The notes: generated by a model from the letters alone, not told the origin. Positions 35,284 to 64,000 are shown, numbered from the stretch's first letter. The stretch is 64,000 nucleotides of DNA from an uncultured Methanosarcinales archaeon (GCA_964343575.1 CAYFJV010000002.1:395809-459808); one strand, 5' to 3'. Numbers and translations are program-made.

Positions 35284-35742
35284 ATGGAATTAGATGTTTA
35301 CGGCTCAAAAAAAGAGGAGCTTATTGCTCTTACTTCAGAAGAGATACTTCATTTTTTTTCTCAAATCCGTAATCGAAAACAGCGACTTTTGTTAATTCTT
35401 CATTATGCAACTGGAATGGCACTGGAAGAGATATTGCAGCTTCGAGCAGGGGCTCTTTGCAGCGCTTATGGTTTTGCTTGGGTGCAAGGGAGAAGAGGAG
35501 AAGTACTTTATCTAAGTCCCAAATTACATATTGCCTTGGAAGAGTGGGTATTTCTTCAGCAACTTCATCAGGATGATTTTCTTTTTCCTTTGCGCCAGAG
35601 TGAACTTCGTGATTTTTTCTCTTTTGAGAGACATTTAGCTTTGCTTCGTAGGCGAGCTGGCTTTTCTGAAGATCTGGTAGAAGATAGCTTTCGGGAGGCT
35701 GCTCGAAAGTACCTTCTTGAACAAGGATATTGTTGTCTTTAG
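35284..35742 (+). CDS. tyrosine-recombinase-like C-terminal fragment with degenerate catalytic residues (probable integrase remnant or pseudo-recombinase)
   Basis: LILHYATGMALEEILQLR resembles box I but lacks the conserved Arg; HLALLRRRAGFSEDLV...ARKYL resembles box II with His and Tyr present but the HxxR Arg replaced; only 152 aa. Confidence 0.45.
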   Translation: MELDVYGSKKEELIALTSEEILHFFSQIRNRKQRLLLILHYATGMALEEILQLRAGALCSAYGFAWVQGRRGEVLYLSPKLHIALEEWVFLQQLHQDDFLFPLRQSELRDFFSFERHLALLRRRAGFSEDLVEDSFREAARKYLLEQGYCCL

Positions 35743-43719: not shown

Positions 43720-43843
43720 CTTCTTCCCTCCTAGTTGTTTAGTTTAATAATTTTTTAGTTAATTTTTTTATGTATAGTAAGCTCTGTTTTAGTTTTTGGA
43801 AATTTCTCCCTCTTTTTTTACTTTTGTATCCTTAAAATTGTTT

Positions 43844-43907
43844 GGCATAACGATGTTATATTCTGGACTTCATGTTCGGAGCAATCTGAGCATAGCGAAG
43901 ATTGAAG
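43844..43907 (+). repeat. repeat element copy A (degenerate): ATAACGATGTTAT box present, hairpin decayed
   Basis: GGCATAACGATGTTATA followed by a decayed stem and a ...GCATAGCGAAGATTGAAG tail homologous to the other copies. Confidence 0.6.
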
Positions 43908-44027
43908 TATGACTTAGAGAAAAAGCTTTTTGCGAATATATTATAAGTTGTCTAATTAAAATGAATTGAAATATTTTTGCTACTTGTGAATGGATAAATT
44001 TATAATTGGAATTAATACCCAACCAGT

Positions 44028-44597
44028 ATGTCAAAATTATATCGTTTAGAAAATGGGGTCATTGAGATAATTGATGGTAATATTGCTGATTATGTTGGAG
44101 TAGAATCTTTAGTTTGTCCCACAACCCCAGGTTTGTTGATTGGAAATGTAGGAACGACTCGTGCCATAAAGGACAGGGCAGGTAGAGAATTTTTGGAAGA
44201 TGTCGATGAATTGCGCAGAAGAATAGGGTCGGCTCATCCCCAAGATGCATACGTGGTTAAACCAGGAAACATTCCAATTGATCGGATAGTTTTATCTGTA
44301 TGTGGATATGATCACAGAACCCCTTCAAGTGGAGTGTCATCTAATCCAGACATGGTACAGGGGGCAACAATGAATGCGTTACGGGTAGCACACGAAGCTG
44401 GTCTCAAGTCAATCGGATTCTCAGCACTAGGAACTGGAAACGGTGGAGTTTCCTTAGATGATGGCATTTCAAGAATGTTACATGAGTTTGGGAAACATTT
44501 ATTGGGAAAAACTTCAATGGAGAAACTTGGACTAATTCTTTATGGTAGTAGGGCATATTCAGTTGCACAGAAACATGCAGATGCGATGCTGACATAA
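44028..44597 (+). CDS. macro domain protein (ADP-ribose binding or processing)
   Basis: N-terminal I.IIDGNIADY..VESLVCPTTPGLLIGNVGTTRAIKDRAG and a later SIGFSALGTGNGGVS correspond to the macro-domain Gly-rich and catalytic loops. Confidence 0.55.
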   Translation: MSKLYRLENGVIEIIDGNIADYVGVESLVCPTTPGLLIGNVGTTRAIKDRAGREFLEDVDELRRRIGSAHPQDAYVVKPGNIPIDRIVLSVCGYDHRTPSSGVSSNPDMVQGATMNALRVAHEAGLKSIGFSALGTGNGGVSLDDGISRMLHEFGKHLLGKTSMEKLGLILYGSRAYSVAQKHADAMLT

Positions 44598-44636
44598 TGC
44601 CGTCCAACTAAAAACTTTTTCTCAAGTAATAATCCC

Positions 44637-44705
44637 ACTTAACGATGTTATGCCCCCTGGACTTTATGTCCAGGTCGAGGCGCAGCCGAGAAGTTAGAAG
44701 TTGGT
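44637..44705 (+). repeat. repeat element copy B (type 1)
   Basis: CTTAACGATGTTATG, hairpin CCTGGAC-TTTAT-GTCCAGG, tail TCGAGGCGCAGCCGAGAAGTTAGAAGTTGG. Confidence 0.8.
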
Positions 44706-44727
44706 AATAGTTAACTATAAGTGCACG

Positions 44728-45504
44728 CTATTTAGTCATTACAAAAATTTTGCAAGGTACGTTAAATTGAATGTCTTCTTTATGTTCTTGGAATTTTAGA
44801 GATTTTCTTAATATTTTAGGAAATCTTTTTCTAATGAATTCATTTAGGTAACGTAGTTTTTCTTTGTCATTGTGAAGTTCAGATTCTAATATCTTCTTAG
44901 AAGAAAATCTGTAGTCTATAGTATGAAATTCTTTGATTTTAGTAAAGTTTGCTTTTTTCATGGTTTCCAAAAATTCATCTTCTCTAAAGAAGTATCTTTT
45001 TCTTATAAGCATTTCAAAACCAGCAAGTTCGTCTTTCTTTCTGATAATATCTTGAAATAACATTTGATTTTCACCATTAAACATTATATTCCAAATAACT
45101 AACTTGCCATTTGGTTTTAAAATTCTAAATACTTCTTTAGAAATTTTTAATTGTTCATTTTTGGATACTTCATGTAAACCCATTTTAATGACTACTTTAT
45201 CAAAAAATTCATTTTCATAATTTGATTTATGGAGAGATTCAACGACAAAATGATCTTTTGCAAGTTTTGGAAGATTTTCTCTTGCTCTTTTTATCTGAAC
45301 TTCACTCTTATCTAAAAGAAAAAGATTGACAGCATTTTCTTTCTCTAAAATTCCCTTGCCTACCGCACCATAACCGCACATGGCGTCAAGAATTGTTTCA
45401 TTTGGTTTGGGATCTATTGCTTCAATTAATTTAGCCCAATCGTCTGGTTTTATACTATGTATCTGTTCATATGAAACAATCCTTATATCATATCCATGCG
45501 CCAT
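44728..45504 (-). CDS. class I SAM-dependent methyltransferase
   Basis: Motif I ILDAMCGYGAVG, post I LLDKS, motif IV-like LKPNGKLVIWN. Confidence 0.7.
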   Translation of the reverse strand: MAHGYDIRIVSYEQIHSIKPDDWAKLIEAIDPKPNETILDAMCGYGAVGKGILEKENAVNLFLLDKSEVQIKRARENLPKLAKDHFVVESLHKSNYENEFFDKVVIKMGLHEVSKNEQLKISKEVFRILKPNGKLVIWNIMFNGENQMLFQDIIRKKDELAGFEMLIRKRYFFREDEFLETMKKANFTKIKEFHTIDYRFSSKKILESELHNDKEKLRYLNEFIRKRFPKILRKSLKFQEHKEDIQFNVPCKIFVMTK

Positions 45505-45572
45505 TATTTGATTAAAATTTTTGTAACTTTAAAAAGCTTAGCGTGCACTACATACTACCAACTTCTAATTGA

Positions 45573-45622
45573 GCTTAACGACGTTATGCTTTCTGCGAAG
45601 CAGATCGAGCAAAGTGAGAAGT
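45573..45622 (+). repeat. repeat element copy C (variant with a short GAA-loop hairpin)
   Basis: GCTTAACGACGTTATG, hairpin TCTGC-GAA-GCAGA, tail TCGAGCAAAGTGAGAAGTT. Confidence 0.7.
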
Positions 45623-45707
45623 TTTCTTACTGTATTTGCCAACTAATTAATAACTGCTTTAGCAGACAAAATATGCGTAGCATGGGGGGAGTTCCAAATA
45701 ATTAATA

Positions 45708-46439
45708 TTAGTAATTAGTACAAAAATCTATGAATGCTCTTCCTAATGGAGTTAACCTTCCGGAGACAATACGAAAACCCATTGAAGATGTCATTGTTCC
45801 AAATATGCTTTTATCTGTATTAAATAATCCCATCTGATAGATTTCTCCATATGCGGATTTGATCATATCTAAATCAATCCCAGGTAGAGCCGCTTGAAAA
45901 ACTTTTCCAATTGCAGCCATTTGAACTGGATCTTTATCTAAATTATGAAACTCAAAATAAGCATCTGGATTATTAGATATAGAAATAATTCTTAAGTGTA
46001 GATCACTTAAATTGTTAACTAGATGTAAAAAATATTCTTTTTGCTCACTTTTTAGATTATATCTTAAAGAATTTATGATTATTCCTTTGTAACAGAATAT
46101 TTTTTGTTTTTGGTAATTTGATAAGACACCTCTTATAGATTCTTCAAAAATAAATGCAAATTCTTCTGTTTTTATATAATCAACATTTGTAGAATTAATC
46201 TGTTGGTGGTGTTCTTCAAGTTTAATTGTCAAATCTCTAATAAAATTATGGAGGCGCTTCTCTTTTTTTTTAGGAATGTAATCTCCAATTAATGAAGATA
46301 TTGGACCACCAATTAGTGGGATTGCAGAAAGGCTCGCTTTAATTACATTTACAAAATGATCTCTTGCTGGAGTGTGATCTAATGATGGCTTTATACTAAA
46401 TTCTACACCTTTAACAATTTCAACTTTATTTTCATTCAT
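45708..46439 (-). CDS. hypothetical protein
   Basis: 243-aa ORF, overlaps the start of the downstream gene by 4 bp (operon). Confidence 0.5.
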   Translation of the reverse strand: MNENKVEIVKGVEFSIKPSLDHTPARDHFVNVIKASLSAIPLIGGPISSLIGDYIPKKKEKRLHNFIRDLTIKLEEHHQQINSTNVDYIKTEEFAFIFEESIRGVLSNYQKQKIFCYKGIIINSLRYNLKSEQKEYFLHLVNNLSDLHLRIISISNNPDAYFEFHNLDKDPVQMAAIGKVFQAALPGIDLDMIKSAYGEIYQMGLFNTDKSIFGTMTSSMGFRIVSGRLTPLGRAFIDFCTNY

Positions 46440-46798
46440 TTTCTTTCTTCACGATAAAGCCAAACCCCTACTATTGTTAAGAAAAGGCTTGCGATGTACC
46501 AGATAATATAGGCCCAGTGGAATTGAGCTGAAAAGAGAATTGGCAATGAAATTCCGATGATCAATGAAAGAATCCCTGCCCAAACTAAAACTAATGGCAT
46601 ACCCCCTTTGTCATGTACTTTTACTGTTTCAGAAGCAATTACTTTTGTAAATTTTCCTAATTCAGCCATTGCAGATGATTCTTGGCTTCTTTCATCATTT
46701 TGACATTCCATGCATAAGGGTAAATTAAAATTTTTCTTTGAGAATTTGAAAACTTTTTCAGAGATATTTTTCTTACACTTGTTACAATATAACACCAT
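46436..46798 (-). CDS. zinc-ribbon plus 2-TM small membrane protein
   Basis: CNKC...CMEC four-Cys N-terminus followed by 2 hydrophobic helices. Confidence 0.5.
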   Translation of the reverse strand: MVLYCNKCKKNISEKVFKFSKKNFNLPLCMECQNDERSQESSAMAELGKFTKVIASETVKVHDKGGMPLVLVWAGILSLIIGISLPILFSAQFHWAYIIWYIASLFLTIVGVWLYREERK

Positions 46799-46898
46799 GA
46801 TCTAGTTATGTAACTAATCTTTATTAAATATTATCATTCTACAGGAACTCCCCTCATTTTTAAAAGTTGGCAAATACTTTTTACAGTAAGAAAATTAA

Positions 46899-46971
46899 GC
46901 ATAACGATGTTATGTCCCCCAGACTTTACGTCTGGGTCGAGGAGCGTAGCGACGAGAAGTTGAGAGATGAG
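46899..46971 (+). repeat. repeat element copy D (type 1)
   Basis: GCATAACGATGTTATG, hairpin CCCAGAC-TTTAC-GTCTGGG, tail TCGAGGAGCGTAGCGACGAGAAGTTGAGAG. Confidence 0.8.
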
Positions 46972-47431
46972 CGACCAAGAAGCCTCTCATTTTCAGCACG
47001 GGAAAAGATTTGCGGAAACACGCACAGAATTTAGCAAAGATCTTCATTGATTATTTTTTGTTTTTTTTGTTGTTTTATTTTAAAAAAAATGATCCTTCTG
47101 AAGATGCGAAATTGTTTCCTACAAATCAGTTTTTGTCGTCGTAGAAAAGTTAAATTTCTTTGAAAAATCATGCTTATCAAAAGGCAAAAAATCCACAAAA
47201 TTTTAATGCAAATTTTCAAAATTATCGAGCATAAAAACCTCAAAAAGTTTCTTATGATGCGCAGAATAATGCAGAAAATTTTGATGAGAAAAGTGGATTT
47301 TTTGCACAAGAATTGTTTAATGATTTTTCAAGACAAAAAGAAAATTCATCGACGACAAAATTCCAGAAAAGTGCTGAAAATGATGCAGAAAAAGGCTTCC
47401 CATTTACATAAAAAGCTCATCTCTCAATTGG

Positions 47432-47503
47432 ACATAACGATGTTAAGCTTCGGGGGCTTTACGCCCCCGCAAGGAGCTTTAGCGACGCAGAGTTTTTTGA
47501 GAC
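47432..47503 (+). repeat. repeat element copy E (type 2)
   Basis: ACATAACGATGTTAAG, hairpin CGGGGGC-TTTAC-GCCCCCG, GCAAGG, tail ...GCAGAGTTTTTTGAGAC. Confidence 0.8.
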
Positions 47504-47513
47504 ATATAGAAAG

Positions 47514-48269
47514 TTATTTTTTAGCCTGACTCCATAATAAATTGAAGAACACTTTGTATGTTTGAGCAAAGTTTTCGTCTTTAATTAATAAGCCGTAAGG
47601 TTCTTTTCCGTAAGTAATAAGGAAAAAGTAATCGTTTAAAACCCCATACTCTGTTTTTGTATTTACATTCATGTATCTTACTTCGGTAAGAGGCATTTTT
47701 TCTCTAATAGGCCCCCATTTCTTTCCAATTTTATTGATTAAGATTTTTAGTTTTACTTTGTCTTTAATTCTTTTCTTGTGAACTACCTCTAAGAAAAATC
47801 CCTCTAATTTGCTGAATGATTCTAATGGTGCAGAAGCAATGAAATATTCATCTCCTGTTTTCCATGAGTTGATAATTTCAGTGTATAATGATTTAATTCC
47901 TCTAATTCCTGAAAAATATTTGAAGTCACTTAATTTAGATATTCCACTTGGCTTTACTTTTAGTTTAGAAATGAAATCTAAAAGTTGATCTTTTTCCTGT
48001 TCAATTTGCTTCTCTTTCTCCACAAATAGATTGGCTAAAGAATCAGGATCAGAAGCACGAAAGACTTTGATGTTATTTACAATCTTAAAATTAACTAAGC
48101 CTTTCTCCGAGAGGCTGTTAAGGATTGTGTAAATCTGAGAGCTTGGAATCTTCGTTCTTTCGCAGATTTTTCCTGTTCGGCTTTCTCCATGTTGTTGGAG
48201 ATCTAAGTAGGTTAAAGCTTCTCTTTCTGATAATCCCGCTGATTTTAAGGCTTCTACATTGTTTTCCAT
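47514..48269 (-). CDS. TrmB-family transcriptional regulator
   Basis: N-terminal winged-HTH (LSEREALTYLDLQQHGESRTGKICERTKIPSSQIYTILNSLSEKGLV) plus a C-terminal TrmB-like domain; 251 aa. Confidence 0.6.
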   Translation of the reverse strand: MENNVEALKSAGLSEREALTYLDLQQHGESRTGKICERTKIPSSQIYTILNSLSEKGLVNFKIVNNIKVFRASDPDSLANLFVEKEKQIEQEKDQLLDFISKLKVKPSGISKLSDFKYFSGIRGIKSLYTEIINSWKTGDEYFIASAPLESFSKLEGFFLEVVHKKRIKDKVKLKILINKIGKKWGPIREKMPLTEVRYMNVNTKTEYGVLNDYFFLITYGKEPYGLLIKDENFAQTYKVFFNLLWSQAKK

Positions 48270-48344
48270 ATTACTACTAATGCAATTAGTAGCGAATATT
48301 TATAAACTTTTCTGTGAATTTTATATTCACTAATTAGTGATAAA

Positions 48345-49370
48345 ATGACTTCGGAAAAGAAAATACCAAAATTGGAATTTACGGAGGAGCGAATAACTTC
48401 TCTTGTAGAGAAATTAGTAGATGATGATACGCTAATTGTAACTGATTCATATGGATTTCCAACTCTGAGCCAACTTGGTAGAACTGCACTTGTTCGTGAT
48501 TGTTATGCTGAAGATGTTGAAGAGATTAAAAGCGGGAATGAGTATTCAAAAGTTCTTGCTGTTGGTGGCTGTACTGCTTTAGATGTTGGAAGGGCCTGTG
48601 CTGTTGGTAAAGAAGTCGTTACAATCCCTACTATTCTTTCTACTTCTTGTATAAGTGTAGATAGAAGTATTATCAAATATCCAGAAGGAAGTAGACTGGA
48701 GAAAACTGTTGCTCCAACGAGAACAATCGTAAGTATTCCTAGTATTGCTGAAACACATATAGCAGATTTGGAAAAATGGTCGCAATCTGGGTTTGGAGAT
48801 TTGTTTGCAAACATAAGCGCTTCTATTGATCTACAATACGAAGTTGGTAATCTTAGTTATGAAGCAGTAAGAAATAATGTTCCAGAATGTTTTGAAGCTC
48901 TTGAGTGGGTAATCAATCAATTTCAAGGTTATGATGAAGATTGCTTGAGAAGATTGGCAACATATTCTCATAATTCATCTTTAATCGTTATAGAAAGAGA
49001 AGATACCAAACTGAGTGCTGCTGGAGAACACAAGCTCTATCATAAAATGATTGACCAGCAAAAGCAGTACAGAGAAGATAGACCAACACATGGTCAATTA
49101 GTTGCTCTTGGAACATTACTTGCTGGAAGAATTTATACAAAACAATCAGGAGAACAAAAACTCTATGAGCAATTAGTTACAGCTTATGAAAAACTAGGTT
49201 TGCCTCTGAGCTATGCTGAACTTCATGATATCGGAATAGAACGAGAGCATATTGTTGATGGTTTGAAAAGCATAGCAGGAAGTAACACTCATTTAGGAGA
49301 TCACTTCGCTCAAGGCGATTATTCTCTCTTAGATAGAGTTTTTGGTGGTGGAAAAAATGAAAAAGTTTGA
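48345..49370 (+). CDS. DHQS-like / iron-containing alcohol dehydrogenase superfamily protein (glycerol-(1-phosphate) dehydrogenase-like)
   Basis: VLAVGGCTALDVGRA (GGG..D..K-type NAD motif) and TIPTILSTSCIS (PTtaS-like) motifs. Confidence 0.55.
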   Translation: MTSEKKIPKLEFTEERITSLVEKLVDDDTLIVTDSYGFPTLSQLGRTALVRDCYAEDVEEIKSGNEYSKVLAVGGCTALDVGRACAVGKEVVTIPTILSTSCISVDRSIIKYPEGSRLEKTVAPTRTIVSIPSIAETHIADLEKWSQSGFGDLFANISASIDLQYEVGNLSYEAVRNNVPECFEALEWVINQFQGYDEDCLRRLATYSHNSSLIVIEREDTKLSAAGEHKLYHKMIDQQKQYREDRPTHGQLVALGTLLAGRIYTKQSGEQKLYEQLVTAYEKLGLPLSYAELHDIGIEREHIVDGLKSIAGSNTHLGDHFAQGDYSLLDRVFGGGKNEKV

Positions 49371-50250
49371 GCATTTTCCACTAGAGAGCATAGATTCTGT
49401 TTTGGCAGAGATAAAACTAGATGATTATGAGCAAGCAGTTTCTGATATTTGTAATCAAATTAGTGAATACTACCAAAGACTTCCAGAGTTTGATGGAAAA
49501 AAACCAAAATTAATAATTGGATTATCTGGTGGAATTGATTCTACTATTGTAAGTTATTTGGCAACAAGAGCAGTAGGAACAGAAAATGTAATTACTGTTA
49601 ATATGCCTGCTTATGATGGAGATGAAAGCGTAGAGAAATCAAACTTAGTGAGTAGAATTTTAGGGACTGAACATTATTCAATTCCAATTAATTCAATCGT
49701 TGAAGCTGAAGTAGATAATATTAGCAAAGATTTCCCAATTGATTCAAATACTGAAACAGGAAAAATCAGAAGAGGCAATTTAGCATCAAGAGCAAGAGTA
49801 GCTGTACTTTATGATATTGCTAGAGAAGTAAATGGAAAGATTCTTGGAACAGGAAACAGAACAGAATTTGTGCAGGGCTATGCTGCTAAATGGGGAACTC
49901 CTATTTCATTTGATTTTGGAGTTTTGGATGATTTGTATAAAGTAGATGTTTATGCAATAGCCGAAGTTTTAGATGTTCCGCAAGAAATTATTGACGCTGT
50001 TCCAACTACTGGTTATTACAAAGGACAAAGCCATGAAGAAGAATTAGGAGCAACACTTGAAGAGCAAGATGTAGCAGCATATTTGCTTTTTGAAAAAGGC
50101 ATGAGTAAAGAAGCAATTGTTAAGGAATTTGGAGCTTCTGCTAATTATTTAGATTCAATGCTTCAGAGATATTCAAGAAGTGTAGATAAAAGAGTAATAA
50201 GACAGGAACATGTAACTCTTAGAAATTTTGGTGGTGAAAATGTTCAGTAA
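49342..50250 (+). CDS. nadE: NH3-dependent NAD+ synthetase (PP-loop ATP pyrophosphatase)
   Basis: PP-loop LSGGIDSTIV; the rest collinear with NadE; start overlaps the upstream gene. Confidence 0.8.
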   Translation: MVVEKMKKFEHFPLESIDSVLAEIKLDDYEQAVSDICNQISEYYQRLPEFDGKKPKLIIGLSGGIDSTIVSYLATRAVGTENVITVNMPAYDGDESVEKSNLVSRILGTEHYSIPINSIVEAEVDNISKDFPIDSNTETGKIRRGNLASRARVAVLYDIAREVNGKILGTGNRTEFVQGYAAKWGTPISFDFGVLDDLYKVDVYAIAEVLDVPQEIIDAVPTTGYYKGQSHEEELGATLEEQDVAAYLLFEKGMSKEAIVKEFGASANYLDSMLQRYSRSVDKRVIRQEHVTLRNFGGENVQ

Positions 50251-51175
50251 TTACTCTAAAGCATTAGTGATTGGAGCAGGAAGCGGAAGAGATATTGCTT
50301 CATCTGTTCTGATAACTGAAAAATTAAGAGAACAGGGGATTGATGTAGATTTAGCAGGTTTTCTGACACCATGGGCTTTGCATGAATTTGATGGAGAATT
50401 GGAAAAAACTGTAAATAAGTCATCTAAGCCAAGCAGAAAATTTATTGCTACACAAAAAGAGGTTTCTTTAGATTCATATTTTGAGCCAGAATTGCCCGAG
50501 ATAAATGAGGAATTAGGTTTGGGTATTGGCGAGATATATTTGTTTTCATTACAGCATGGAACAGAAAGCTTAAGAGAAGAATTAGAGGGATTAGTTAGAC
50601 AAAGAGATTATGATTTAATTGTTGCTGTTGATGTTGGAGGAGATATTCTTGCACATAGGCGAGATTTGGCTTCTGTTTATACTCCAATTGTTGATCTTAC
50701 TTGTTTAGAAGTATTAGCAGATTTGAAAACAACTGCTGACAAATATTTGACAGTTGTTGCTCCTGGAGTTGATGGAGAGATTCCAAGCCAGAGATTAGCT
50801 GAAATAATTGGTAATGAAAGAATTTTGAGAAGAGAACAATTAAACCCAGAAAGCAGAAATTATCAGACTTTTGTTCAAGTTTATGATGAAATTAATAGAA
50901 GAACAAAATCATCTAGTCATACAGGAGATGTAATTAGAAAGATAGTAGAGGGAAAATCAGATTTTACGGAGGAGTATAAAAGAAATGGAGTTTCATTTAC
51001 TGTTAAGTTAGATAAAGAATTAGCAAGTGGAATTTATTATTTTGATTTAGAAGCTGTTAAATCTCAGCGAAGGAGTGTTGGTGTTAGTTATGAAAATATT
51101 TCAGAAGCTCATAGGTTAATGAAGGAAATGGGGGCCAGCGGAACAGAAGTTGATTTAACGTATGTTCCAAGATAG
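50228..51175 (+). CDS. hypothetical protein, third gene of the DHQS-like/NadE operon
   Basis: 315-aa ORF whose start overlaps the nadE stop; LVIGAGSGRD and VAVDVGGD Gly-rich loops. Confidence 0.5.
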   Translation: MVVKMFSNYSKALVIGAGSGRDIASSVLITEKLREQGIDVDLAGFLTPWALHEFDGELEKTVNKSSKPSRKFIATQKEVSLDSYFEPELPEINEELGLGIGEIYLFSLQHGTESLREELEGLVRQRDYDLIVAVDVGGDILAHRRDLASVYTPIVDLTCLEVLADLKTTADKYLTVVAPGVDGEIPSQRLAEIIGNERILRREQLNPESRNYQTFVQVYDEINRRTKSSSHTGDVIRKIVEGKSDFTEEYKRNGVSFTVKLDKELASGIYYFDLEAVKSQRRSVGVSYENISEAHRLMKEMGASGTEVDLTYVPR

Positions 51176-51261
51176 TAATTAGTTCAAAGGAGTATGGGGT
51201 TTTAGTTAAAGGAGTCAGGCTCTTCGCAGAAGGTAATACTGTTTATGTCTCAAAAAATTAA

Positions 51262-51339
51262 GCTTAACGATGTTATGTGCCCATGACTTTATGTCATGGT
51301 GCGTAGCGTTAGCGGAGCAAGTTGGATTCTCATGTTGAG
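51262..51339 (+). repeat. repeat element copy F (type 1)
   Basis: GCTTAACGATGTTATG, hairpin CCATGAC-TTTAT-GTCATGG, tail TGCGTAGCGTTAGCGGAGCAAGTTGGATTCTCATG. Confidence 0.8.
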
Positions 51340-51395
51340 CGGAGGGTCGCCATTGTAGAAAAGCTTTTAAGTTTCAAACTTTTTGATTATTTAAA

Positions 51396-52019
51396 ATGAA
51401 ATTTTATTTATCATCATACAAACTTGGAGAAAAAGTTGATAAGCTTAAAGAGATGATGCCAACTGGTAAAAAGCTTGGTTATATTCCTAATGCTTTAGAT
51501 TTTTCTGGAGCTGATCCTGCACGAAGAGAACAATCAATTAAGAAAGATGTAGACGAATTAAAGAGTCTTGGTTTTGATGTAGAAGTAATTGATTTGCAAG
51601 ATTATTTTGGAAAAAATGGTGAATTAAAAAGAAAATTAGACCAATTAGGAGGAGTATTTGTTAGAGGTGGAAATACTTTTGTTTTGCGCCAAGCAATGAA
51701 ACTAAGTGGTCTTGATGAAGTTCTTAAAGGCATGAAAGATAGAGATGATTTTCTTTATTCAGGATATAGTGCAGGAATTTGTGTTTTAGCTCCAGATTTA
51801 CACTCACTTCAAATTGTTGATGATCCGAATGATACACCATATGAAGGATTAGAAAAAGTTATTTTTGAAGGATTAGGAATATTAGATTATATGATTTTAC
51901 CACATTATAAGTCAGATCATCCAGAGTCTGCTGATATAGATAAGGAAGTTGAATATTGTAAACAGCACGATGTGAAGTTTAAGACTCTGCGAGATGGTGA
52001 AGTCATAATAATTGAATAG
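51396..52019 (+). CDS. pepE: peptidase S51 family (peptidase E / alpha-aspartyl dipeptidase-like)
   Basis: VFVRGGNTFVL...GYSAGICV (catalytic Ser in the GxSAG context) pattern of S51 peptidases. Confidence 0.65.
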   Translation: MKFYLSSYKLGEKVDKLKEMMPTGKKLGYIPNALDFSGADPARREQSIKKDVDELKSLGFDVEVIDLQDYFGKNGELKRKLDQLGGVFVRGGNTFVLRQAMKLSGLDEVLKGMKDRDDFLYSGYSAGICVLAPDLHSLQIVDDPNDTPYEGLEKVIFEGLGILDYMILPHYKSDHPESADIDKEVEYCKQHDVKFKTLRDGEVIIIE

Positions 52020-52087
52020 ATGGCGACCCGATTAGGTTCTTAGAGTTTAGCTTTAGCGTACTTCTAATTACATGAGAATCCAATTGC

Positions 52088-52162
52088 ACATAACGATGTT
52101 AAGTTTCGGAGGGTTTATCCCTCCGCAAGGTTAACGTAGTTAACCGCAGAGTTGAATTTGAG
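52088..52162 (+). repeat. repeat element copy G (type 2)
   Basis: ACATAACGATGTTAAG, hairpin CGGAGGG-TTTAT-CCCTCCG, GCAAGG, second hairpin GGTTAAC-GTA-GTTAACC, tail GCAGAGTTGAATTTGAG. Confidence 0.8.
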
Positions 52163-52266
52163 TTTTCCTATTAATCCTGCTTTAGCAGACATACGTTTAG
52201 GGGCTTTCCAAACACATTAATTTAAGGGGCTTTGGTTTTCATCATTATTTAGGAGTAATTTTATAA

Positions 52267-53013
52267 ATGGCTTGTTTTTTCTTTATTATTATGGATTTAA
52301 GAACAATAGCAGACAGATTTGTAGAAATTGGAGAAAGATTCCCTGGGCCATATATTGATTCAGGTATGCCATGTTTTGGTAGAGATTTCACTGGAATTTC
52401 TGCAAATTTGGGAGCAGGAGAAGTATATAATACTCAAGATTCTGCTTACCAATTAGTCTTATCAATTTCTATGGCAGATCATCCTGTTATCGCTGATGTT
52501 CTTGGATTACCCAAATATGATGGTGATGATGAATCTATTGCTCGTGTTGTTGGAAGAATGACTGAAGAAAAAATTCTTGATGGGGTGAGGATTTTAGATT
52601 TGGGTTGTGGATTAATTCCAACATTTGCACGATCTGCAAGAAGATTAGGAGCAGATGTTTACACCGTTGATGTAATTTTGCCTACTGCTTTTGAATATTC
52701 CAGAGAACTTTTTCCAGAAGATGCAAGAGATGCTGAACAAAAAGATCACTTTGCAATTGATTTAAACCAAAGAAATGCAGGTAAAAAAATTGCTAAGAAG
52801 TTTGGTTCTGATTTTGATTTAGTAACTTCAGCATATATTGAAGAAGGAGCACATTTTGGTTGTGGAATTGAAGCACATTTTTATGGTGGTTCAGGTTTTG
52901 CAAAACAATTTCTAGGACAAAATGGTGTTTATTTTGGGACACATGCTTCTGGAATATTAGTTCAAGGTAATCAGTTTGTGAAAACAGAGTTAGGGAAAGT
53001 GACATCTGATTAA
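52267..53013 (+). CDS. putative class I SAM-dependent methyltransferase
   Basis: Motif I ILDLGCGLIPTFARSARRLGADVYTVD. Confidence 0.5.
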   Translation: MACFFFIIMDLRTIADRFVEIGERFPGPYIDSGMPCFGRDFTGISANLGAGEVYNTQDSAYQLVLSISMADHPVIADVLGLPKYDGDDESIARVVGRMTEEKILDGVRILDLGCGLIPTFARSARRLGADVYTVDVILPTAFEYSRELFPEDARDAEQKDHFAIDLNQRNAGKKIAKKFGSDFDLVTSAYIEEGAHFGCGIEAHFYGGSGFAKQFLGQNGVYFGTHASGILVQGNQFVKTELGKVTSD

Positions 53014-53279
53014 ACCAAAGCCCCCACATAGTTTTTTTCATTCTAGTTTTTATCATCAAGGAAAGCCCCGTCATCTTAAAACTCAAATTCAATTAAACTT
53101 AACTCGTTATATCTAAACTTTTAGGATTTGGCCCCCTTCGTAGTCGAATTTCTTCGTTTTAAACAGCCCATAAAGTGTTATACTGACTTCTCTTTTTGGT
53201 AGTAAATATATAATGTACCCAATATCTCACAAGACAATCTTGGTTCCTGTTTAAATAGAAGCTCATTACATGAGCATCT

Positions 53280-54128
53280 ATGGATGTTGCAGGAATAATT
53301 CAAAGAAAAGCACTTCTTTTAGGTTTGAGACCAAACACTATTAAAACATATACTGCTATTGTACAAAGATTTTTGAGAAAATACAAGTTAAATGTTTGGG
53401 AAGTAACTACAAAAGATATCGAAAAACACTTACTTGTTTTACTGGAGAAAAATAAATCTGGGAGCTCAGTTAATGTACATCTTAATGCCTTAAAATTCTT
53501 CTTTGAGAAGTGTTTAGGTAAAAGAGTAACGCTTAATATGAAGTTCACAAAGCAAAGAAGAAAGTTGCCTACATTTCTCACACAAGAAGAGATAATCTTT
53601 TTTCTTGAGGTAATTGAAAACAGAAAACATAAGCTAATGATTTCTTTACTTTACTCTGCGGGTTTACGGGTTAGCGAATTGCTGGATTTGAAAGTTAGAG
53701 ATCTAGAGCTTTCTAAGAATCATGGTTGGGTGCGTGATGGGAAAGGGGGGAAAGAGAGGCCATTCATCATTGCTGAGAGGATCAGATTAGATCTAGAGAA
53801 TTGGTTGTTTGAACAAAGACTTAACGATTGTGATTATTTGTTTGGTAACAAGGGGAGAAAGATGAGTACACAAACAGTAAGGAAGATTATTCATAACACA
53901 AAGAAGAAAGCAAGAATTAAGAAGAATATTGGCCCACATAGTTTAAGACACTCTTTTGCAACACATTTCTTAGAGCAAGGCAATGCTCTAACTGAATTGC
54001 AACCCCTACTTGGACATAGCAGAATTGAGACAACTCTTGTTTATTCGCATATGGCATCGCCACAATTGTTAAAGATGCAAAGCCCATTTGACAATCTAGA
54101 GATTAATAATGAGAAGAGATTGAAATGA
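53280..54128 (+). CDS. tyrosine recombinase / integrase (XerC/XerD/XerA family)
   Basis: Box I SAGLRVSELLDLKVRDL, box II HSLRHSFATHFLEQG...LLGHSRIETTLVYSHM with R-H-R-Y catalytic residues; 282 aa. Confidence 0.85.
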   Translation: MDVAGIIQRKALLLGLRPNTIKTYTAIVQRFLRKYKLNVWEVTTKDIEKHLLVLLEKNKSGSSVNVHLNALKFFFEKCLGKRVTLNMKFTKQRRKLPTFLTQEEIIFFLEVIENRKHKLMISLLYSAGLRVSELLDLKVRDLELSKNHGWVRDGKGGKERPFIIAERIRLDLENWLFEQRLNDCDYLFGNKGRKMSTQTVRKIIHNTKKKARIKKNIGPHSLRHSFATHFLEQGNALTELQPLLGHSRIETTLVYSHMASPQLLKMQSPFDNLEINNEKRLK

Positions 54129-55327
54129 AGTTAAAGAGAATCAAGTACAAAGATATCGAAGAAACACCCCAGATTAAAGTAAACAAGAGTTTCAAATCCC
54201 ACTTTTTTGGAAGTAGTCCTGCTCCCTTCATTGGAAGATATGGCTATCCTAACATCAATGTTGGAGTTTTATCGCCTCAGTACTCTGGTGATACGTCTTA
54301 TTTCAACTCACCAAAGCAGTGGAGCAAAGATATTCTTAGTACAGGACAAATTGCCAACATGCGTTTTGGACTTGTTAATTCTCGAACGAAGTGGCACATT
54401 AAAGATTTAGCTCAGAGAAAACGATTCATTGACATTGTGCAGGAATCAGGAGTAGTTGCAAGCTCAGTAGAGTTAGAAGTTGATCTTAAGAATGTTCCAG
54501 TTGGTGGTTACAAAGCTGAGAAAGAAGTGACACTCTTCGGCCCACGAGCAGAAGTGAAGAAAGCTCGAGTGACAGCTAATTCTCGGGTGGATACACGAGT
54601 TGATCGAGTGATAAGTGACACTGATTTGAAAGCTGTGAAAGGCGTTATGCGTTTGTATAAGCATGGTTTTGAAGAGAGCTTTTTGAATAAAGCACTTTCT
54701 GTTGGGACGCTTGGTGTTGGTAAGAACAGGAAGTTGGTGCCAACCCGTTGGAGCATTACAGCAGTTGATGATACGGTAGGAAAAGAGTTGATTAAAGAGA
54801 TTAAGGATATGCAATGTGGGGAGTATGCAGCTTACTTTGGTGGTGAGTGGGGAAACTATTACTTGTTTTTGTTCTTTCCGGATGTTTGGAGTTACGAGCT
54901 TTTTGAGATGTATCTAAAAAAACCAAAAGAAGCAAATCCTTGGAGTAAACAAGGACTCTTTTATTCCACAGATTATGAGAGTTATGAAGGAAGGAAAAAG
55001 TATGCTGAGGAAACTGCTGGCGGTTATTACGCCTCGCGATTACCTGTGCTTGAAGAGATGAAGAAACAAAAGCGGCAGGGAAGTTGTTTGGCACTTCGTT
55101 TTATTACAGATGAGTATCAGATCCCTTTGGGTGTGTGGATTTGTCGGGAGAGTTCTCGTAAATCGGTTGGCAGTAAAAGGATTGTATTTGCTTCGCAGGA
55201 GCTGATGCTAGAATATGCTCGCAGATTGGTCAGTGATAAGTTTGCTTTTGATCTTGATCTCTTGCTTGGGAGAAGTAAATTGCTTCAGAATAGAAAGCAG
55301 CAGGTGAAGTTGAGCTCGTTTTTTTGA
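54125..55327 (+). CDS. conserved archaeal protein, possibly Nre-family (DUF650/DUF651) DNA-repair-associated protein
   Basis: 400-aa ORF whose ATG overlaps the recombinase stop (ATGA); family assignment from recalled patterns only. Confidence 0.4.
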   Translation: MKLKRIKYKDIEETPQIKVNKSFKSHFFGSSPAPFIGRYGYPNINVGVLSPQYSGDTSYFNSPKQWSKDILSTGQIANMRFGLVNSRTKWHIKDLAQRKRFIDIVQESGVVASSVELEVDLKNVPVGGYKAEKEVTLFGPRAEVKKARVTANSRVDTRVDRVISDTDLKAVKGVMRLYKHGFEESFLNKALSVGTLGVGKNRKLVPTRWSITAVDDTVGKELIKEIKDMQCGEYAAYFGGEWGNYYLFLFFPDVWSYELFEMYLKKPKEANPWSKQGLFYSTDYESYEGRKKYAEETAGGYYASRLPVLEEMKKQKRQGSCLALRFITDEYQIPLGVWICRESSRKSVGSKRIVFASQELMLEYARRLVSDKFAFDLDLLLGRSKLLQNRKQQVKLSSFF

Positions 55328-62735: not shown

Positions 62736-64000
62736 ATGTTGAAGGTTATTGTTAAGAAAGAATTAGCTCTGGTTGGCTTTTCGATGTTGTTAGTTCTTTT
62801 TCTTGCAGGGATATTTTTCTTTCAACAAGGCGATGGTCCAGCTGCGGGAAAAGCGGTTGCGTTTGGTGATATTGGGGTTTCTGTTGCTGATGGAAGCAGC
62901 ATTTTTGTTTCTTGTGGGATGGAGCTTAGCCAATCGATGCTTCTCACTGATAGTTTGGACTGTTCGACTTCAGGCGGGGTTCATGGAATAATCATCAACA
63001 CAGATGACATTTACCTTGACTGTCAGGGGAATAGTATCTTTGGTGGCCCTTCTGATCATCATGCAATTTTTATCAATGGTAATAACGTAGAAGTCAGAAA
63101 TTGTGTTTTAGAAGATTATGGGATTCTTCTTAGCACTTATGGAGATGATGCTCACATTCATCACAACACTTTTAGAAACAGTGCTGATGGAGTCAATGTG
63201 TGGTGGGCAGATAGGGCTACAATTGAAGATAATTCCTTTGAAGATTTGTTGTCCGGTGCGATTTTTCTACAAAGTTCTGATCATGGCTATGTTCTGAGGA
63301 ATGATCTTATTGGAATTGGTTTTGATGCAATCAGTTTATATTCTTCAGAAGGGAATAATGTTATCAATAATGATATTAGTTCTTCTCGAAATGGAATAAA
63401 ATTGACTTATGGTTCTGGTAGTAATATTGCTACCAACTTCATAAATGATAACACAGGGATTGGGGTTGCTGTTTCGGGCGCTGTGGATTCCTCAGTTTCC
63501 GGAAACATTCTTGGCAATAACGAGAAAGGAATAGTTGTGGAGTGGAATAGTGCTTTGGATAATGAGCTCATCAATAATAGGATCACCGATTCCCTAGTAG
63601 ATGGGATTCTTCTTCAAGGGACGGACCCTGGTTCTCATCATAGAAGTGTTCTTCGTGGAAATACTATAGAAGGCTCTGGCGCTCATGGAATCCAGATGGT
63701 GAATTCCCATGATAATTATATCGGAGACAATGAAGTTACTGGTTCAGCAAGGGCCGGAGTTTACATTGTTGAATCTCATGAAAATCACTTGGAGAATAAT
63801 GATTTTTCTGGTAGTCAGGAGCAAGGTGTTGCAGTCTTTTCTTCTTCTGACAATTTTTTCCTTGCTAACAGAATTGAAGGAAATACTTTGTCTGGTCTCT
63901 CATTACTTGGACCAGACCTCAATGCTACAAATGTGAGCCAAAACAATATTAGCCTTAATGGAGTTATGGGAATAGAACTTAGTGGAACGACTGGACCTGC
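62736..64000 (+). CDS. secreted or membrane-anchored protein with right-handed parallel beta-helix (PbH1/NosD-like) repeats, 3' partial (runs off the window; not in the supplied ORF track)
   Basis: Open frame from ATG 62736 to the window end. N-terminal hydrophobic segment. Repeated ...N.I..N.....GI.. motifs typical of pectate-lyase-fold beta-helix repeats. Confidence 0.65.
   Translation, partial: MLKVIVKKELALVGFSMLLVLFLAGIFFFQQGDGPAAGKAVAFGDIGVSVADGSSIFVSCGMELSQSMLLTDSLDCSTSGGVHGIIINTDDIYLDCQGNSIFGGPSDHHAIFINGNNVEVRNCVLEDYGILLSTYGDDAHIHHNTFRNSADGVNVWWADRATIEDNSFEDLLSGAIFLQSSDHGYVLRNDLIGIGFDAISLYSSEGNNVINNDISSSRNGIKLTYGSGSNIATNFINDNTGIGVAVSGAVDSSVSGNILGNNEKGIVVEWNSALDNELINNRITDSLVDGILLQGTDPGSHHRSVLRGNTIEGSGAHGIQMVNSHDNYIGDNEVTGSARAGVYIVESHENHLENNDFSGSQEQGVAVFSSSDNFFLANRIEGNTLSGLSLLGPDLNATNVSQNNISLNGVMGIELSGTTGP

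Follow-up and report, generated by a model that had tools for sequence, protein, structure and literature searches.

A stretch of 64,000 nucleotides (GCA_964343575.1, CAYFJV010000002.1:395809-459808; the window), labelled as an uncultured Methanosarcinales archaeon, carries between 43.85 and 53.10 kb a series of structured repeats separated by short accessory genes, and the series ends at a site resembling the archaeal dif, beside a gene for a XerA-type tyrosine recombinase. A sequence-only reading had recognized the repeats as a structured family and had offered three guesses as to their nature: a novel non-coding RNA (ncRNA) family, attC- or att-like recombination sites, or elements similar to miniature inverted-repeat or palindrome-associated transposable elements (MITE/PATE). 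That description is correct in substance, with small errors; it overlooked the inverted repeats at the ends of each cassette, which are cassette-specific, as well as a second hairpin, the dif-like site that ends the array and the recombinase gene beside it. When these are considered, the region is probably best explained as seven promoter-independent cassettes of 0.5-3.8 kb, which would have been inserted successively at the dif-like site beside the recombinase gene.

Repeats, cassettes and recombinase gene at the locus

The conserved box of the repeat, TAACGATGTTA, was searched in the 64-kb window with at most one mismatch and gave seven matches, all on the + strand (43848, 44640, 45576, 46902, 47435, 51265 and 52091). 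The chance expectation is 0.74 and none of 100 shuffles reached this count. A covariance model trained on 45 copies, all from other genomes, recovered exactly the same seven and no further one (E<=1). Thus, the seven same-strand copies reported earlier are confirmed by two methods, and the statement that they are unlikely to be due to chance holds. The 13-mer said to be identical in all of them reduces to an 11-mer found in six of the seven, copy C reading TAACGACGTTA.

Five of the copies, termed junctions here, score 62-69 bits with the covariance model. Junction B (44631-44695, 62.4 bits) has the complete set of a linker, the box, hairpin 1 (CCTGGAC/GTCCAGG), hairpin 2 and a tail ending in ..GAGAAGTT. 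The arms of hairpin 1 are CCCAGAC/GTCTGGG in junction D (46893-46961, 68.7 bits), CGGGGGC/GCCCCCG in junction E (47426-47494, 68.0 bits), CCATGAC/GTCATGG in junction F (51256-51323, 68.1 bits) and CGGAGGG/CCCTCCG in junction G (52082-52153, 66.4 bits), the last having GGTTAAC-GTA-GTTAACC as hairpin 2. Junction C (45567-45623, 38.5 bits) carries CTGC-GAA-GCAG in place of hairpin 1. The outermost copy, junction A (43839-43909, 32.7 bits; box TAACGATGTTA at 43848-43858), is degenerate, its loop reading TTCAT between non-complementary, decayed arms. All seven lie on the + strand. The complementary GC hairpin with a TTTAY loop described from the sequence is therefore perfect over 7 bp, and constantly spaced, in B, D, E, F and G, while A is degenerate and C has a different, short hairpin. 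Similarly, the proposed division into B, D and F versus E and G needs revision because F has a third type of tail (TGCG..GAGCAAGTT), which sets it apart from B and D. A further stretch at 63947-63967 (+), TATTAGCCTTAATGGAGTTAT, resembles the linker-box pattern with one mismatch; it receives no covariance-model score and is probably a chance match.

The repeats bound seven cassettes. Cassette 1 (43851-44642, 792 bp; terminal repeats 43908-43930 and 44610-44631) contains a Macro-domain gene (44028-44597, +), and cassette 2 (44643-45578, 936 bp; terminal repeats 44694-44709 and 45553-45568) an S-adenosylmethionine methyltransferase gene (44728-45504, -). Two genes of unknown function on the - strand occupy cassette 3 (45579-46904, 1326 bp; terminal repeats 45622-45634 and 46882-46894), and a small open reading frame (ORF) with no family match occupies cassette 4 (46905-47437, 533 bp; terminal repeats 46960-46972 and 47415-47427). 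The longest, cassette 5 (47438-51267, 3830 bp; terminal repeats 47493-47506 and 51244-51257), encodes a TrmB regulator on the - strand and a dehydrogenase-like protein, NAD synthase and a DUF1152 protein on the + strand. A Peptidase_S51 gene (+) is found in cassette 6 (51268-52093, 826 bp; terminal repeats 51317-51335 and 52070-52087), and a 248-aa gene (+) with no family match in cassette 7 (52094-53102, 1009 bp; terminal repeats 52152-52166 and 53078-53092), which adjoins the dif-like site. The cassette genes are accessory in kind and lie on either strand with no common orientation; the earlier observation that all repeats face the same way whatever the gene direction is supported, as is the conclusion that they are not terminators. 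No recombinase domain was found in any cassette ORF of the window, Pfam gave no replication or transfer match in the seven cassettes, and three cassette genes have no family match. The array (44-54 kb) has a GC content of 31-35% against 39-43% on both sides, and the return to the higher value coincides with the recombinase gene.

The eighth, hairpin-less member of the family lies just outside the range given by the sequence-only reading. This site, designated H (53092-53117, +; ATTAAACTTAA-CTCG-TTATATCTAAA), takes its left arm from the last cassette and its right arm from the chromosome. The partner of the sequence that follows junction G is the 15-mer reverse complement at 53078-53092, after which comes AATTAAACT-TAACTCGTTATATCTAAAC, with the linker and TAAC and without hairpins. 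Its layout is AATT-N5-TAA-N4-TTATATCTAAA, 162 bp upstream of the recombinase gene. In archaea, dif is a 28-bp site with 11-bp imperfect inverted arms and a 6-bp spacer, present once in the replication-termination region, where it resolves chromosome dimers. The right arm TTATATCTAAA, an 11-mer found once in the window, equals that of the Pyrococcus abyssi dif at 11/11 positions and the left arm at 7/11, the comparison being with the dif used experimentally by Cortez et al., whose oligonucleotide sequence is given in their Methods (PMC2958812). The box AATT-N5-TAA-CGATG-TTAWG shares the left arm and TAA/TTA with the terminal site; between TAA and TTA, the terminal site has a spacer of 4 nt and the box one of 5 nt, and these share the first base only. 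Described archaeal dif sites read TAA(N6-8)TTA (PMC11840125), so with its 4-nt spacer the site is called dif-like and not dif.

The recombinase gene (53280-54128, +) encodes 282 aa and is co-oriented with the array. Its product matches Pfam Phage_integrase (1e-35) together with SAM_4, and the best NCBIfam match is recomb_XerA_Arch (NF040815), scoring 210.3 bits where the cut-off is 220. Its alignment with the XerA structures 5HXY and 4A8E (Thermoplasma and Pyrococcus; E ~1e-36) is full-length, covering residues 14-266 without insertion. The integron-integrase model TIGR02249 matches in two stretches with 178.3 bits against a cut-off of 265, PRK15417 reaches 115 against 435, and IntI4 (2A3V) aligns only to residues 19-175. 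As the TIGR02249 match is split and below the cut-off and the IntI4 alignment partial, an IntI-specific insertion is not present; judged by these alignments, the protein is a simple Xer-type enzyme. A 152-aa ORF 18 kb upstream of the array (35284-35742, +; Phage_integrase 24 bits, below the cut-off; 27% identical to the recombinase of the array) probably represents a recombinase fragment. Apart from this fragment, no second full-length Xer was found in the window.

Repeats as junctions of two cassettes

The repeat is the junction of two cassettes and not a self-contained unit. The upstream cassette contributes the left third (AATT, a 5-nt linker and TAA), and the remaining two thirds on the right, made up of CGATGTTA, 5 nt, two hairpins and ..AGTT, come from the downstream cassette. 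In 12 pairs of repeats from different genomes, which share the upstream flank and differ in the downstream one, identity is 0.83-1.0 through the linker and falls to ~0.5 at +11, the first base past the box. In three converse pairs the linkers differ, and identity is complete from +11 onwards. Moreover, the linker of each repeat pairs with the five bases after the box (post-box) of the preceding repeat: 4.21 of 5 positions are paired on average and the pairing is perfect in 37 of 62 cases, while linker and post-box within one repeat reach 2.67 of 5, no more than shuffled sequences do (2.67 ± 0.11). The homology breakpoints and the linker/post-box pairing together place the exchange point inside the invariant TAACGATGTTA, and the discrete element assumed by the sequence-only reading is thus replaced by a composite junction. 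Since the terminal site shares only AATT-N5-TAAC with the repeats, the exchange is placed between TAA and the following base.

The complementarity extends beyond the linker. The sequence 3' of each repeat begins at the TT of ..AGTT and matches, in reverse complement, that lying 5' of the next repeat; in the window, this upstream arm stops 7 nt before the next box. When all downstream flanks were compared with all upstream flanks in a 7x7 matrix, only the superdiagonal stood out, with scores of 26-39 against a background of 11-20, and the two flanks of one and the same repeat (the diagonal, 11-17) were non-complementary. Evidently, each inter-repeat segment in the window has its own terminal inverted repeat of 13-23 nt. 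In other genomes, the score was above the 95th percentile of the null in 83% of 65 consecutive pairs (5% for the null itself), and the commonest end point of the terminal repeat is exactly 7 nt short of the box. A generic inverted-repeat search of 43-54 kb was swamped by AT-rich chance pairs, and the targeted downstream/upstream comparison was used instead. At junction A the chromosomal left flank meets cassette 1 at its 5' end. The sequence downstream of this junction is complementary to that upstream of B (score 29), and no complementary partner was found for the upstream flank of A.

These relations bear on two further explanations. Non-autonomous transposable elements of the MITE/PATE kind, or a series of sites bound by XerA to organize the chromosome into domains, would account for a short structured repeat present in many genomes, and dif regions are domain boundaries in some archaea (PMC11840125). 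The repeats, however, have neither terminal inverted repeats of their own nor target duplications, and are not dispersed: the window copies occur only in one co-oriented array beside xerA, with the same placement in other contigs where xerA is visible. A binding array would also not be expected to show cassette-specific complementarity or reuse of cassettes across genomes, and we regard both variants as very improbable. A canonical integron, with IntI and attC sites, is suggested by a cassette array beside a tyrosine recombinase and by the core RCWTAAC/GTTAWGY, which resembles RYYYAAC/GTTRRRY; in addition, integrons have been reported in Nanoarchaeota (PMC9668308). No repeat alone, however, forms the R''-L''/L'-R' hairpin, since the two sides of one element pair no better than the null; the crossover is central in the conserved unit instead of at its 3' edge, and the genes have no common orientation. 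With the partial matches to the integron-integrase model and IntI4 described above, this explanation is hardly to be credited.

The same cassette can be reused in different genomes. The cassette TTTTCAAGTTACC...GGTAACTTGAAAA was found in eight or more genomes, next to different neighbours; in one case it directly adjoins the terminal site. Thirteen repeat pairs have the same cassette body; the post-box 5-mer is kept in 11 of these pairs, and in 4 pairs hairpins 1 and 2 are entirely different. As these hairpins differ while the body is the same, they behave as an exchangeable inner module. The loop of hairpin 1 was considered as the crossover on the basis of hybrids in contigs L014, L024 and L009, and was rejected because the homology breakpoints and the linker/post-box pairing place the boundary in the box. 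In the hybrid copies (L014, -, 3149 and L024, -, 7654, compared with L099:2311, L009:2663 and L092:2762), the arms of hairpin 1 derive from two common types and switch at the TTTAY loop. This suggests patch exchange between repeats as the better explanation; a second exchange point was also raised.

Folding of repeats and reconstructed junctions

In hairpin 1, all seven pairs are Watson-Crick in 74 of 107 distinct copies from DPANN contigs against 3 expected with shuffled partners, and 35 different arm combinations occur. This covariation supports the earlier claim that structure rather than sequence is under selection. Hairpin 2 is of variable length, usually of the form stem-GA-[2-3 bp]-triloop-[2-3 bp]-GA-stem and often GC-GNA-GC. 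It is more stable on the + strand (60 vs 12, p = 2e-10), which holds against shuffles of its own strand, and the motif GA-xx-loop-xx-GA is present in 37 of 93 copies on the + strand and in none of 93 on the - strand. The opposition of T and G in AATT/AGTT is conserved while the outer pair covaries, TATT occurring with AGTA. A sub-family of junctions has an insertion of ~45 nt in the loop of hairpin 1 (TTTAA-GTGAGCC-AGACTAA...GCGAGCGTGCCC) with the outer stem retained (L044:1709 and 2821; L052, -, oriented 479; L068, -, 1023; L076:3979; L124:8960-9068); either a small nested element or an elongated arm could account for it.

When the two ends of one cassette are joined in silico (a reconstructed junction), a continuous palindrome arises around the exchange point, for example GGACATAAC-GAT-GTTATGTCC, in addition to the two hairpins and a long stem that closes the structure (X'-AATT with AGTT-X, where X and X' are the arms of the terminal repeat). 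With DNA parameters, reconstructed junctions of six cassettes of the window fold at -20 to -32 kcal/mol (z -4.6 to -9.1), none of 200 shuffles being as good, and junctions of the same length as they stand in the array at -13 to -15.5 kcal/mol (z -1.7 to -3.4). The predicted fold consists of four stacked helices meeting with almost no unpaired bases. In 57 reconstructed junctions, 91.6% of the cells of the box helix and hairpin 1 are paired, compared to 68.6% after shuffling and 30-45% in slid registers; double-change cells number 224 against 73 in shuffles, and the covariation score of 0.588 (0.174 in shuffles) was reached by none of 500 shuffles.

Strand-specific hairpin 2, the conserved T.G opposition and the single orientation of all copies would also suit small structured RNA genes or RNA processing signals, in which the hairpins might be, for example, a kink-turn-like protein-binding motif. 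Tandem G.A pairs and GNA triloops are stable in DNA too, as in d(GCGNAGC) mini-hairpins. The partners of linker, post-box and X are separated by 0.5-3.8 kb and by a gene that in many cases is on the opposite strand; the boundary of the unit falls inside the box; and the linkage to a recombinase gene and a dif-like site would be left unexplained. A search of 42-55 kb on both strands against Rfam 15 gave no match at E<=1, which agrees with the earlier failure to assign the repeats to a known element family. A likeness of the cloverleaf to tRNA was considered as well, and ARAGORN found no tRNA or transfer-messenger RNA in the array region (the reconstructed junctions were outside the scan). Promoter and terminator scans gave no enrichment, the models being bacterial and not applicable to archaea. 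Taken together, an RNA function appears quite improbable. Among the three guesses of the sequence-only reading the evidence favours attC- or att-like recombination sites, and there is little support for the ncRNA and MITE/PATE guesses.

Recurrence, proposed capture route and related systems

The species genomes of GTDB were scanned with a 28-nt element pattern, which gave at least 119 loci. Among the matches listed, ~70 are contigs of Woesearchaeota, Nanoarchaeota or Pacearchaeota, including binchicken metagenome-assembled genomes (MAGs) that are labelled Methanosarcinales and suspected to be mislabelled; the earlier assignment of the host to DPANN is supported. The arrays in other genomes hold up to seven co-oriented copies per 8 kb. 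About 45 bacterial matches (Acutalibacteraceae, Ruminococcus and others) were discarded, being single copies inside a conserved gene with 0-4 of 7 stem pairs. The pattern also matches a conserved coding stretch (..AAGATGGTTAACGATGTTAAGCCCGGCGG..) in many gut Clostridia (L003, L012, L021, L022, L030, L039, L043 and others), which is unrelated to the archaeal element and would contaminate a pattern-based census. A scan of IMG/VR gave seven matches, all of them coding-sequence coincidences without the hairpin; no viral carrier was found. Arrays labelled 'uncultured Methanosarcinales' were noted in the binchicken loci L005, L009-L011, L018, L026, L031, L033, L035, L040, L041 and others, and the recombinase of one MAG so labelled (CAYWPT01) is 75% identical to that of the window. 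Possibly these labels are mistaken; alternatively, the system may not be confined to DPANN.

At eight loci, homologues of the recombinase (44-56% identity) are encoded just downstream of arrays and co-oriented with them, and the same layout is found in L123, L124, L126 and L134. The order array, dif-like site, xerA was seen in nine lineages or more. In the window and at eight other loci, xerA is preceded by a terminal site with the pattern AATT-N5-TAA-N4-YTATA... In the lineage of L124 and L126 the box reads TAAT-N2-3-TGTTA and the terminal site TAA-TGCC, and the first central base agrees between dif-like site and box, C/C in the window and T/T in L124 and L126. Contigs with further homologues have small accessory genes upstream (Fic, HNH, PIN, RHH, NUDIX), then the dif-like site, xerA and core genes, which vary by lineage (ThrRS, Hef, Pelota, the rpS7-RNA polymerase cluster). 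In one lineage an ORF6N gene lies between dif-like site and xerA; it ends 4 nt before xerA in L134 (6714-7997), where a small ORF is also present, and overlaps the xerA start by 11 nt in L125 (1284-1493). It could be an accessory factor or a mere passenger. The gene directly 3' of xerA differs in every lineage examined, being Nre in the window (54125-55327), ThrRS, Hef or ribosomal protein S7 (L123:2911-5136; L124:10822-13038; L126:10832-11428), even at 75% recombinase identity, which points to either a mobile xerA-array module or a rearrangement hotspot.

We propose that circular cassettes are captured one by one at the dif-like site by the adjacent XerA-type enzyme. The attachment site of such a circle would consist, in order, of the stem arm X', AATT with the 5-nt linker, the core TAA|CGATG|TTA, the 5 post-box bases that pair with this linker, hairpin 1 (7 bp, TTTAY loop), hairpin 2 (flanked by G.A pairs, often with a GNA triloop), ..AGTT and arm X. 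Exchange between TAA and the next base would place the incoming cassette's right part next to the left arm formerly at dif, and would rebuild the dif-like site from the left arm of the incoming cassette and the chromosomal right arm TTATATCTAAA. The array would then grow at its recombinase-proximal end, each internal repeat becoming a hybrid of two neighbours. The complementarity of cassette ends, the strand-specific hairpin 2 and the unequal spacers suggest a single-stranded substrate and one-strand exchange. The site would act as a folded single strand (+), and only one strand would be exchanged before replication completes the process, as in attC x attI recombination and CTX-phi integration. 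The anatomy of the cassettes, the place of their boundary, their complementary ends, the recurrent layout and the reuse of a cassette across genomes follow from the computations; XerA as the catalyst, the circular form of the cassettes and the identity of the terminal site with the dimer-resolution site of the chromosome are parts of the proposal that we infer.

Several observations weigh against this proposal. The recombinase scores just under the NCBIfam XerA cut-off. The spacers of terminal site and box are shorter than the 6-8 nt of described archaeal dif sites, and as they are short and unequal an ordinary two-strand exchange is not obviously possible. No GC-skew switch is seen at the terminal site within the 64 kb, and 4 of 12 xerA loci lack a terminal site by the search pattern used. 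Hairpin 2 alone informs which strand folds; the other stems show no G.T bias, with G.T and A.C counts of 9 vs 6 in hairpin 1, 9 vs 9 in the linker/post-box helix and 26 vs 19 in the closing stem, where the register search favoured G.T. The model assigns no role to hairpins 1 and 2, which are swappable under a constant cassette body. For the widespread TTTTCAAGTTACC cassette no circle or tandem junction was found in metagenome contigs of the Joint Genome Institute (JGI), and the dif of one lineage had the same terminal cassette in 3 of 3 samples, that is, no turnover at population scale.

Some of these points would also fit the main alternative, a dedicated cassette integrase that resembles XerA, with the terminal site as a private, attI-like site instead of the dimer-resolution site and the rest of the model unchanged. 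The sub-cut-off score, the 4-nt spacer and the lack of a skew inversion agree with it, as does the gene always travelling with the array while its core-genome neighbours differ by lineage. On the other hand, XerA_Arch is the best-scoring family, the alignment with solved XerA runs end to end, the right arm matches that of P. abyssi dif at every position, and no second full-length Xer is encoded in the window. A relative, P0081 (50% identity), carries the product name of the XerA model at NCBI, and xerA/dif modules are known in other archaea (PMC5357621, PMC11840125). A dedicated integrase is therefore considered unlikely, and capture by the XerA-type enzyme at the dif-like site is kept as the preferred model.

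The closest known systems share different parts of this anatomy. Archaeal integrons, as described by Ghaly et al. (2022), have IntI and canonical attC (PMC9668308). As in an integron, a chromosomal tyrosine recombinase gene is found next to an insertion site, which is abutted by a co-oriented array of promoterless, recombinase-less cassettes with accessory genes, and the attachment sites are conserved in fold and not in sequence with a core like AAC/GTT. Unlike in an integron, the IntI-specific domain around patch III is absent, the arrayed repeat does not form a self-contained attC hairpin, as seen from its pairing and z values, and the site from joined ends is predicted to be of four helices and not one imperfect hairpin. 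Furthermore, mid-unit crossover makes each arrayed repeat a hybrid, and the recombinase gene is co-oriented and located at the 3' end of an array with genes in both orientations.

In CTX-phi the attachment site is a folded single strand. This phage, VGJ-phi, TLC-phi and the gonococcal island are integrative mobile elements exploiting Xer (IMEX; reviewed in PMC5357621). Like these, the cassettes have no recombinase of their own, carry a dif-like site of which only part of the central region matches dif, and pile up in tandem; integration at dif by host Xer would be the same, as the junction anatomy suggests. They differ in having an archaeal host with a single recombinase, in being bare 0.5-3.8 kb cassettes instead of phages or islands, in the fold and accessory hairpins, and in a family that spans many DPANN genomes. 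On plasmids, pdif sites flank a module as inversely oriented XerC/D pairs. Here, all eight sites are direct repeats in a chromosomal array beside xerA with structured accessory sequence. The pdif modules of Acinetobacter plasmids are likewise small, with Xer-type sites at the borders of their genes, and mobility through Xer recombination is assumed for them, as is proposed here (PMC7399989, PMC11705084). The archaeal Xer/dif system (Cortez et al. 2010, PMC2958812) is alike in the best-matching recombinase family, the right arm and, in some archaea, the adjacency of xerA and dif, and different in its 6-8 nt spacer as against 4-5 nt here and in the dif-like site ending a cassette array. In the literature covered, which includes reviews of archaeal tyrosine recombinases and Xer systems, no Xer-linked archaeal cassette arrays were found; this coverage is incomplete and an earlier description is possible. 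As far as found, the locus is an integron-like gene-capture platform built from different parts and not yet described.

The broader reading, in which Woesearchaeales and related DPANN archaea have a widespread integron-equivalent platform built on Xer/dif, with four-helix sites and single-strand insertion at dif by XerA, is put forward tentatively, at slightly less than even confidence. If true, archaea and bare gene cassettes would join the few bacterial phages and islands for which the hijacking of Xer is known. Integron finders, which rely on the IntI domain and an attC model, would probably miss such arrays. As integron integrases are relatives of Xer, a plain Xer-type cassette platform with fold-conserved attachment sites would be a living example of a possible integron precursor, offering a concrete intermediate in the origin of integrons and their cassettes and a handle on how cassettes acquire attachment sites. 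For the organisms themselves, it would mean that some of the smallest archaeal genomes hold an expandable store of accessory genes (methyltransferases, Macro, Fic, HNH, PIN, NUDIX, NAD synthase) at a defined chromosomal site, which bears on how DPANN episymbionts acquire and exchange genes.

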